NCBI GenBank assembly: GCA_018780035.1
Contig: JADMKE010000021.1
Span: 27,844 to 91,843 of the forward strand
Length of the DNA stretch: 64,000 nt
Direction: 5' to 3'
From: Candidatus Sericytochromatia bacterium
Lineage (GTDB): Bacteria; Cyanobacteriota; Sericytochromatia; UBA7694
The notes under the pieces were generated by a model. The model worked only from the letters and a program-made list of their open reading frames with translations, was not told the origin of the DNA and did not search any database. This document shows, piece by piece, positions 56,549 through 57,065 of the stretch. The position numbers and the translations under genes are program-made. Within the stretch, counting starts at the first letter, position 1. Each line of letters begins with the position of its first letter.

Positions 56549-56590
56549 AGGCCTTTTCTCACGACCTTATCAAGATCCCTTTTGGGGGGT

Positions 56591-56620
56591 GTTATCAGGC
56601 GTTGTCAGGCATTATCAGGC
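56591..56620. repeat. three tandem 10-bp repeats RTTRTCAGGC about 45 bp upstream of the minus-strand hypothetical gene
   Basis: gttatcaggc gttgtcaggc attatcaggc seen directly. Confidence 0.6.
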
Positions 56621-56748
56621 AGGTTTGAGCCGCCTATTAAAGTCCATTCATTATACAGCGCTTCACAGATTTGATGATACCTATCACAGAAATTATGCCG
56701 CTTAGATCGTAAGAATGGAACAGAGACAGACGCGCCATTGTGCCAGCT

Positions 56749-56778
56749 TTGACACTTAAATATGAAATAAGGTATAGT
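56749..56778 (+). promoter_or_regulatory. near-consensus sigma70 promoter (TTGACA-18 nt-TATAGT)
   Basis: Exact -35 hexamer, -10 TATAGT, 18-nt spacer. Located in the 500-bp leader of the porin gene. Confidence 0.4.
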
Positions 56779-56795
56779 GCGCATGAATCAGTATC

Positions 56796-56826
56796 AAACT
56801 GTTTAAGACAGTTTCTTGCTTTTTTG
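56796..56826 (+). terminator. intrinsic terminator-like hairpin + U-run about 15 nt downstream of predicted TSS
   Basis: AAACTGTttaagACAGTTTcttgcTTTTTT. Confidence 0.4.
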
Positions 56827-57065
56827 CGGAACCAAAAGTTTGTTTGCTTTTAATTCAATTTTAAGGGAACAAAGTGCTGGTTACCGGCGTCTTGTCAAAA
56901 CTGGTGGTCAGACTACAACACAATCTGAATTTGGTTAACATTGCAGCTCAAAATGGAGGAAACACGGCCACTCCAGCTTCGGTTTCAAAACGTTACCCCA
57001 AAATCAGATGACACACACCACATTTTTTTGCCAGATTTTTAACTTACTTTGGAGGATTCATTCGA

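Follow-up and report, generated by a model that had tools for sequence, protein, structure and literature searches.

A Sericytochromatia porin gene is preceded by a conserved predicted promoter and a structured leader with a 5'-proximal hairpin

Positions 56549-57065 of the 64-kb stretch of DNA that was analysed (hereafter, the window) form a 517-bp divergent intergenic region, with a minus-strand ORF on one side and a porin gene on the other (Table 1). Sericytochromatia are uncultured, non-photosynthetic relatives of the cyanobacteria, and SLH porins, which anchor the outer membrane to the cell wall, count among the most plentiful proteins of the envelope. To our knowledge, nothing is known about gene control in Sericytochromatia, and a literature search for outer-membrane or SLH genes of this group found no publications. 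In a preliminary description of the sequence, the region had been called a 500-bp porin leader. This was overstated, as the 517 bp are a divergent spacer, but a porin leader of ~281 nt, counted from the predicted promoter P1, stands.

Close homologues of the 691-aa porin gene product are encoded in metagenome-assembled genomes of Candidatus Blackallbacteria and Sericytochromatia. An AlphaFold (AF2) model of the protein, with a mean pLDDT of 61, contains SLH helices and a long coiled coil, with a beta-barrel at the C-terminus, and a Foldseek search of the PDB with this model returned porins as top matches, including OprB and the SLH-anchored OmpM1 of Veillonella. The NCBIfam model por_somb scored 67 bits, which is under its cut-off, and matched the N-terminus only. 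Considering the modelled architecture and the porin matches in the PDB, 'porin' appears to be a fair label for this protein.

Table 1. Genes and features of the divergent spacer and its borders (positions in the window)
Feature	Position	Strand	Basis or remark
121-aa ORF	56183-56548	-	no Pfam match; hpt lies beyond, also on the minus strand
Three tandem decamers RTTRTCAGGC: GTTATCAGGC, GTTGTCAGGC, ATTATCAGGC	56591..56620		TRF, pattern count
TATAAT inside conserved CATTATACAG box (56649-56658)	56650..56655	-	box kept in window clade and L008
Box A, ATGATACCTATCACAGAA (ATGAY-N4-RTCACAGAA)	56674..56691	+	21/21 sequences
Predicted promoter P1, sigma-70 type, TTGACA-18-TATAGT	56749..56778	+	scan (11/12); ortholog conservation
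HP1, stem-loop at the predicted P1 5' end (hairpin first flagged: core 56796-56814)	56790..56820	+	folding, orthologs
U5 tail of the T6 run (56820-56825), lineage-specific	56821..56825	+	ortholog comparison
HP2 domain, 3' arm = invariant GGGAAC (56865-56870)	56827..56886	+	pairing in lineages
Candidate ECF-sigma-type promoter P2, GGAAC-N17-CGTC	56866..56891	+	invariant boxes, fixed spacing
Conserved block CGTCTTGTCAAAACTGGTGGTC (other clades: CGTCGTCTATAAGTTTAAGTGGTC)	56888..56909	+	ortholog alignment
Rod hairpin, 87 nt	56923..57009	+	folding, covariation, covariance model
Shine-Dalgarno GGAGGA, GGAGG invariant	57051..57056	+	ortholog alignment
SLH-domain outer-membrane beta-barrel protein (porin), 691 aa	57066..59141	+	signal peptide, Pfam SLH

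For comparison, 27 orthologous loci (designated by L numbers) with 98% to 49% protein identity were collected from genome and metagenome scans and by exact-protein look-ups. The position of P1 is reached in 26 of these, L041 having just 144 nt of upstream sequence. A second set comprised 20 upstream regions of paralogous porin genes (50% and 38% identity groups), and these were found to be without P1, Box A, the rod hairpin or the strict motif GGAAC-N16/17-CGTC. The gene upstream of the porin gene varies among the orthologs and can be hpt with the 121-aa ORF, Usp, UDG or acyl-CoA dehydrogenase. In five short metagenome contigs (L043-L047), the sequence starts at P1 or slightly upstream of it, 290-313 nt before the ATG of the porin gene, and it seems that assembly breaks off in the variable region upstream.

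On the divergent side of the spacer, the conserved CATTATACAG box contains a perfect minus-strand TATAAT, which is likely to be the -10 element of an operon of the 121-aa ORF and hpt. The hpt ORF is listed with a GTG start at 56204 and then shares 22 nt (56183-56204) with the end of the 121-aa ORF; hpt itself probably begins at a downstream ATG, and the orthologs are called at 191 aa. The preliminary description had also singled out three RTTRTCAGGC decamers in the supposed leader. These are present, and they exceed chance, since TRF reports a period of 10 with 3.0 copies and a score of 46, and the pattern occurs 4 times in the 64 kb versus 0.39 expected matches. They are, however, confined to the closest strains (the window, L001, L003 and L007), being degenerate in L002 and decaying also in L007, and they are absent in L042, L086 and L087, where the divergent ORF starts ~50 nt from the CATTATACAG box. 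If this box is the promoter of the divergent gene, the decamers would lie in its 5' UTR. The distribution points to an insertion that is specific to this lineage and lies outside the porin leader, in the 5' region of the 121-aa ORF, and the decamers cannot be counted as an element of that leader.

The promoter-like sequence proposed for the porin gene, TTGACA (56749-56754) and TATAGT (56773-56778) with an 18-nt spacer, is present as described and is the best-scoring promoter between positions 56000 and 57600, with 11 of 12 matching positions. Its hexamers and spacer are those of a sigma-70-type promoter (spacer of 16-18 nt), and it is kept in 26 of the 27 ortholog loci, that is, in all 26 that could be tested. 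In these, P1 takes the form TTGACA or TTGTTA, a 17-18-nt spacer and TA[TCA]A[GT]T, and lies 275-319 nt before the ATG. A P1-like site was found in none of the 20 paralog upstream regions. The start of transcription, placed from the -10 hexamer alone, is predicted at ~56784-56786, giving a leader of ~281 nt in the window and of 250-285 nt across the orthologs. Since P1 is kept at this distance whatever the upstream gene, the long leader appears to be real. We conclude from the ortholog comparison that the predicted promoter P1 and a leader of 250-285 nt are conserved features of the porin gene. The preliminary description had offered read-through into a ~280-nt porin 5' UTR as its alternative reading, and a conserved, structured leader fits it.

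Upstream of P1, a further conserved element, Box A, is present in each of the 21 sequences that extend far enough (the window and 20 loci), at 58-70 nt (L048: 83 nt) before the -35 box, its centre in the window being ~104 nt upstream of the predicted P1 start. Box A occurs once in the window; elsewhere it was found at ortholog loci only, and it is absent from the paralogs. As a TGAT-N4-ATCA-like palindrome, it resembles sites of the CRP/FNR family in sequence. A second, semi-conserved box (GTAAAAGCGTAMAC-like) is seen downstream of Box A, at ~56700-56718.

Close to the predicted start, a stem-loop followed by a T6 run (56796-56826) had been reported, and this sequence is indeed present. The core of the hairpin, HP1, is formed by AAACTGT(T) (56796-56803) pairing with (G)ACAGTTT (56807-56814). 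The T6 run begins 5 nt past this core stem of 7-8 bp, and it is only to an extended, interrupted stem (56790-56820) that U5 is adjacent. Both stems are A/U-rich: the core has 8 pairs, two of them G-C, and the extended stem has 12 pairs, three of them G-C, with two internal loops, so that HP1 does not offer the G+C-rich, uninterrupted stem of a terminator. The fold has a predicted energy of -10.4 kcal/mol and a z-score of -1.9, which is marginal taken alone, as 8-9 of 200 shuffled sequences fold equally well.

In every ortholog, a hairpin of 13-21 pairs lies within a few nucleotides (0-6 unpaired) of the predicted start, formed from sequences that cannot be aligned. When a fixed 50-nt segment beginning 6 nt after the -10 hexamer was folded, 16 of 18 lineages gave a single 5' hairpin; the z-scores reached -5.5, their median being about -2.7, and HP1 of the window is among the weaker ones. 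No other part of the leader is as poorly conserved as the HP1 segment (6-56% identity across lineages). Among the closest relatives it changes freely, and the leader 3' of position 56826 is nearly invariant. Compared to L042, the HP1 segment is 49% identical, whereas the coding sequence is 85% and the protein 88% identical, and the two stems differ by paired changes (CUGU/ACAG in the window, CGUC/GACG in L042). A hairpin that is kept at 49% identity next to a coding sequence at 85% is the pattern expected if structure alone is constrained, and a structure that is kept while its sequence drifts is what would be looked for in a 5' stabiliser.

The U-rich tail behaves differently from the hairpin. 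It follows HP1 in three clades only (the window clade, L086 and the L005 clade) and is absent in L042, L087, L008, L014, L088, L090, L004 and the L043-L094 clade; the combination of hairpin and U-tract is thus not kept in the orthologs. These data bear on the proposal that HP1 is an early terminator or attenuator, in which HP1 and the U-run would stop part of the P1 transcripts ~40 nt in and regulated read-through would set the level of porin. Like such a system, the window strain has a hairpin and then a U-run soon after the promoter. This U-run is set off by 5 nt from the core stem, and U5 directly adjoins the extended one; U6 is found past a different stem in L086, and UUUUU past the hairpin of the L005 clade. 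A terminator scan nevertheless did not call the site, and a re-implemented scan called it only once the G-C requirement was cut to 2 pairs, at which setting the L086 site passes as well. With standard criteria, no lineage passes at this position except for a marginal call in L044. Unlike an intrinsic terminator, the stem is A/U-rich and interrupted, and its U-run is unconserved, being absent already from L042 with its 88% identical protein; neither a conserved antiterminator pairing nor a leader peptide or conserved small ORF was found in the ortholog leaders. We therefore consider attenuation an unlikely explanation for the conserved hairpin, but some premature termination may occur in the window strain, whose U-run is shared with L086 and the L005 clade. 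The comparison of lineages indicates that a stem-loop, rather than a terminator, is conserved at the predicted 5' end, and the T-run appears to be a lineage-specific trait, not a conserved function.

The other function that had been put forward, an independent sRNA of ~45-50 nt, would require that P1 drives this short RNA and that all transcription of the porin gene comes from a promoter further downstream, such as P2. The strong, conserved promoter followed by a hairpin would suit it, and with a P2-like element further downstream the porin gene need not depend on P1. Conserved sequence is expected of an sRNA, however, and here the candidate body is the very segment that is least conserved, which leaves no conserved seed; its terminator is not conserved either, and the distance from P1 to the porin ATG is kept in all testable lineages. 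On these grounds we regard an sRNA as very improbable. The interpretation given in the preliminary description is thus partly supported, and its early terminator or sRNA would not be a strong lead as judged from the orthologs.

The inverted repeat at the start site could also serve as double-stranded DNA, as an operator to which a repressor binds. Its location, overlapping +1 to +40 of a strong promoter, would be appropriate, but the sequences of the arms, their lengths (13-21 pairs) and the sizes of the loops vary by lineage, unlike those of a protein-binding palindrome, and the stems contain G-U pairs, which are sensible in RNA only. Such an operator is accordingly given very little weight here.

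A role for HP1 in the RNA is suggested by a known leader. In Escherichia coli, a 5' stem-loop (hp1) and the ribosome-binding site of the ompA leader stabilise the mRNA (Emory et al. 1992; Arnold et al. 1998; both as cited in PMC7509114). The porin leader resembles that of ompA in being a long, structured leader on the mRNA of an abundant outer-membrane protein, with a hairpin near the 5' end (the predicted one in the porin leader) and a strong Shine-Dalgarno sequence. The two share no sequence or structural homology, and the porin leader is about twice as long as that of ompA (281 versus 133 nt) and adds an internal promoter-like site and a rod whose loop is invariant. If ompA hp1 is taken as the model, HP1 most likely shields the 5' end of the mRNA from 5'-end-dependent RNase attack.

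Downstream of HP1, two boxes point to a candidate second promoter, P2. In 20 orthologs, GGGAAC (56865-56870) and CGTC (56888-56891) are invariant and are separated by a spacer of 16 or 17 nt whose sequence is free. Promoters of ECF sigma factors have AAC in the -35 and CGT in the -10 element. The boxes and spacing of P2 (GGAAC, CGT(C) and ~16-17 nt) agree with this class, as does its location in front of an envelope-protein gene, and the predicted motif of the cyanobacterial SigG consists of a -35 GGAAC and a -10 GTC (PMC8155712). Transcription from P2 would start at ~56897-56900, giving a leader of ~167 nt. The relaxed motif G[GA]AAC-N15-18-CGT[CAT] has 2 matches in the 20 paralog upstream regions and the strict form none; the window has one other GGAAC-N16/17-CGTC, at 5964-5989, which falls within an ORF of the minus strand and corresponds to chance level. 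A cognate ECF sigma factor, usually one that is autoregulated through its own motif, would be expected in the genome; a phmmer search of the window and 94 loci with E. coli RpoE as the query found no ECF sigma gene.

The candidate P2 differs from known ECF promoters in that its -35 box doubles as a hairpin arm in P1 transcripts. In 16 of 19 lineages, GGAAC and an arm upstream of it form the hairpin HP2, and the flanks are compensatory (for example GGAACC/GGUUACC, GGAUCC/GGAUUC and GUUCUGG/CCGGAAC). Because GGAAC is the 3' arm of HP2 in these 16 lineages, its conservation could act at the level of the RNA rather than at that of a promoter, and we see the chances of P2 being a real second promoter as evenly balanced. 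As a separate observation, a T-run follows HP2 in L088 (2794-2813), L045, L093 and L094, where most other lineages have AAA, and HP2 with its T-run passes the terminator criteria in L088 (8 pairs, 4 G-C, TTTTT) and in L045.

The same rod hairpin was predicted independently in 21 of 23 sequences, with z-scores of -1.0 to -4.05 (-2.1 or lower in 9 of 10 representatives). Its base helix, P1h, in which ATCTG (56923-56927) pairs with CAGAT (57005-57009), shows G-C to A-U swaps (12:10), and 7 of its 8 pairs have changed on both sides. At the apex, GGAG (56955-56958) pairs with CTCC (56971-56974) around the 12-nt loop GAAACACGGCCA (56959-56970), and this 20-nt element, GGAG-GAAACACGGCCA-CUCC, is invariant or nearly so in the orthologs. 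A covariance model of the rod (R1) gave one match per ortholog locus (25 matches at E <= 3e-11) and no match in the paralog loci or in the rest of the 64-kb window. In the model-fitted alignment, 74.8% of the cells are paired versus 35-47% in slid controls, and the covariation score is 0.283 versus at most 0.123 in the controls. Covariation of the leader in related genomes, which the preliminary description had proposed to look for, is found in the base helix of the rod.

The inner helices of the rod (2-4) are less regular, with register shifts between clades and 51-66% pairing in an alignment to a single covariance model. Applied to plain MAFFT alignments, RNAalifold retrieved just two parts, the base helix and the apical stem, and an all-against-all search for column covariation was too noisy due to phylogenetic structure. 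The established parts of the rod are one covarying closing helix and an invariant loop, and do not extend to a multi-helix junction. A search of positions 56000-57600 with the 4227 models of Rfam (E <= 10) gave three chance-level matches (E of 7-9; 15-16 bits versus gathering thresholds of 42-55).

Three further possibilities raised by the rod sequence were considered and set aside. An anti-Shine-Dalgarno switch, in which the apical CUCC would pair with the true Shine-Dalgarno sequence, is permitted by the sequence, but the predicted partners of the Shine-Dalgarno are inconsistent across orthologs. A pseudoknot between the loop and the upstream block (GUGGUC/GGCCAC) is, by inspection, lost in L005, L006, L087 and L008. 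An ATG-started ORF that runs over the invariant loop (56953-57042, 29 codons, containing EETRPL) was judged non-coding; an ORF in the frame of the loop, either ATG-started or preceded by a Shine-Dalgarno, is found in 7 of 16 leaders, with an unconserved start, no third-position variation and immediate divergence after the loop.

The Shine-Dalgarno of the porin gene is not consistently sequestered across the orthologs. In the window, the porin start codon lies within the palindrome TTCATTCGAATGAA (57057-57070), and in other clades the GGAG of the Shine-Dalgarno is displayed in the loop of an AAUUC/GAAUU hairpin. The apical element of the rod supplies a second invariant GGAGGA ~111 nt upstream of the start codon, besides the true Shine-Dalgarno, reminiscent of STAB-SD in the cry3A mRNA of Bacillus thuringiensis, which is stabilised by a sequence that resembles a Shine-Dalgarno but lies a long way 5' of the start codon. 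Unlike in STAB-SD, the GGAG in the leader is predicted to be paired with the invariant CUCC (unpaired probability ~0.17), and it is not obviously free for 16S rRNA.

The rod raises the question of whether the leader is primarily a sensor, with the conserved block, the rod and its loop acting together, as a riboswitch-like element or a translational operator, to bind a ligand, a protein or an sRNA; HP1 would then be accessory. Functional RNA motifs typically combine invariant loop nucleotides with a closing helix that covaries, as the rod does; the rod is specific to the porin gene, and Rfam holds no match to it. Cyanobacterial porin 5' UTRs are, moreover, known targets of sRNAs, such as Yfr1, which controls cyanobacterial porin mRNAs post-transcriptionally (PMC6974561). 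The likeness to Yfr1 lies in the targets, 5' UTRs of SLH/OprB-type porins in the cyanobacterial lineage, but neither Yfr1 nor any other sRNA was identified at the porin locus. Complementarity of the porin leader to the core motif of Yfr1 amounts to only ~5 nt. For a riboswitch, no conserved expression platform coupled to the rod was found, the Shine-Dalgarno partners differing between orthologs as described above; the candidate pseudoknot is lost in the four lineages named, and a lone rod hairpin would make a rather simple ligand pocket. We consider it improbable that sensing is the main purpose of the leader. The rod itself probably has a protein, the ribosome or another RNA as its partner.

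Taken together, we interpret the 517-bp spacer as a control region of the porin gene that comprises the P1 leader, a protective 5' hairpin (HP1), the candidate promoter P2, the rod and the Shine-Dalgarno sequence, and we assign this reading a probability of roughly 0.55. In the mechanism that we propose, the conserved sigma-70-type promoter P1 would start the ~281-nt leader, and HP1, as the first structure of the P1 transcript, would shield its 5' end in the manner of ompA hp1. HP2 overlaps the P2 motif, which would give a second input of the envelope-stress type. In the read-through RNA, the rod would bind a protein, the ribosome or another RNA, and the leader would end with the invariant Shine-Dalgarno.

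A bolder proposal, which we put forward tentatively and consider rather unlikely, is that the rod with its apical GGAG-GAAACACGGCCA-CUCC and the upstream block represents a new, Sericytochromatia-specific class of cis-regulatory RNA that has a protein, an sRNA or the 30S subunit as its binding partner and ties production of the main porin that anchors the outer membrane to the status of the envelope, alongside dual sigma-70 and ECF promoters. As it stands, the rod is a candidate new RNA motif for curation of the Rfam type. The control region as mapped here, with its predicted promoter and 5' hairpin, a second promoter that may respond to a stress sigma factor and an RNA hairpin without an Rfam family, provides testable elements of gene control for Sericytochromatia.
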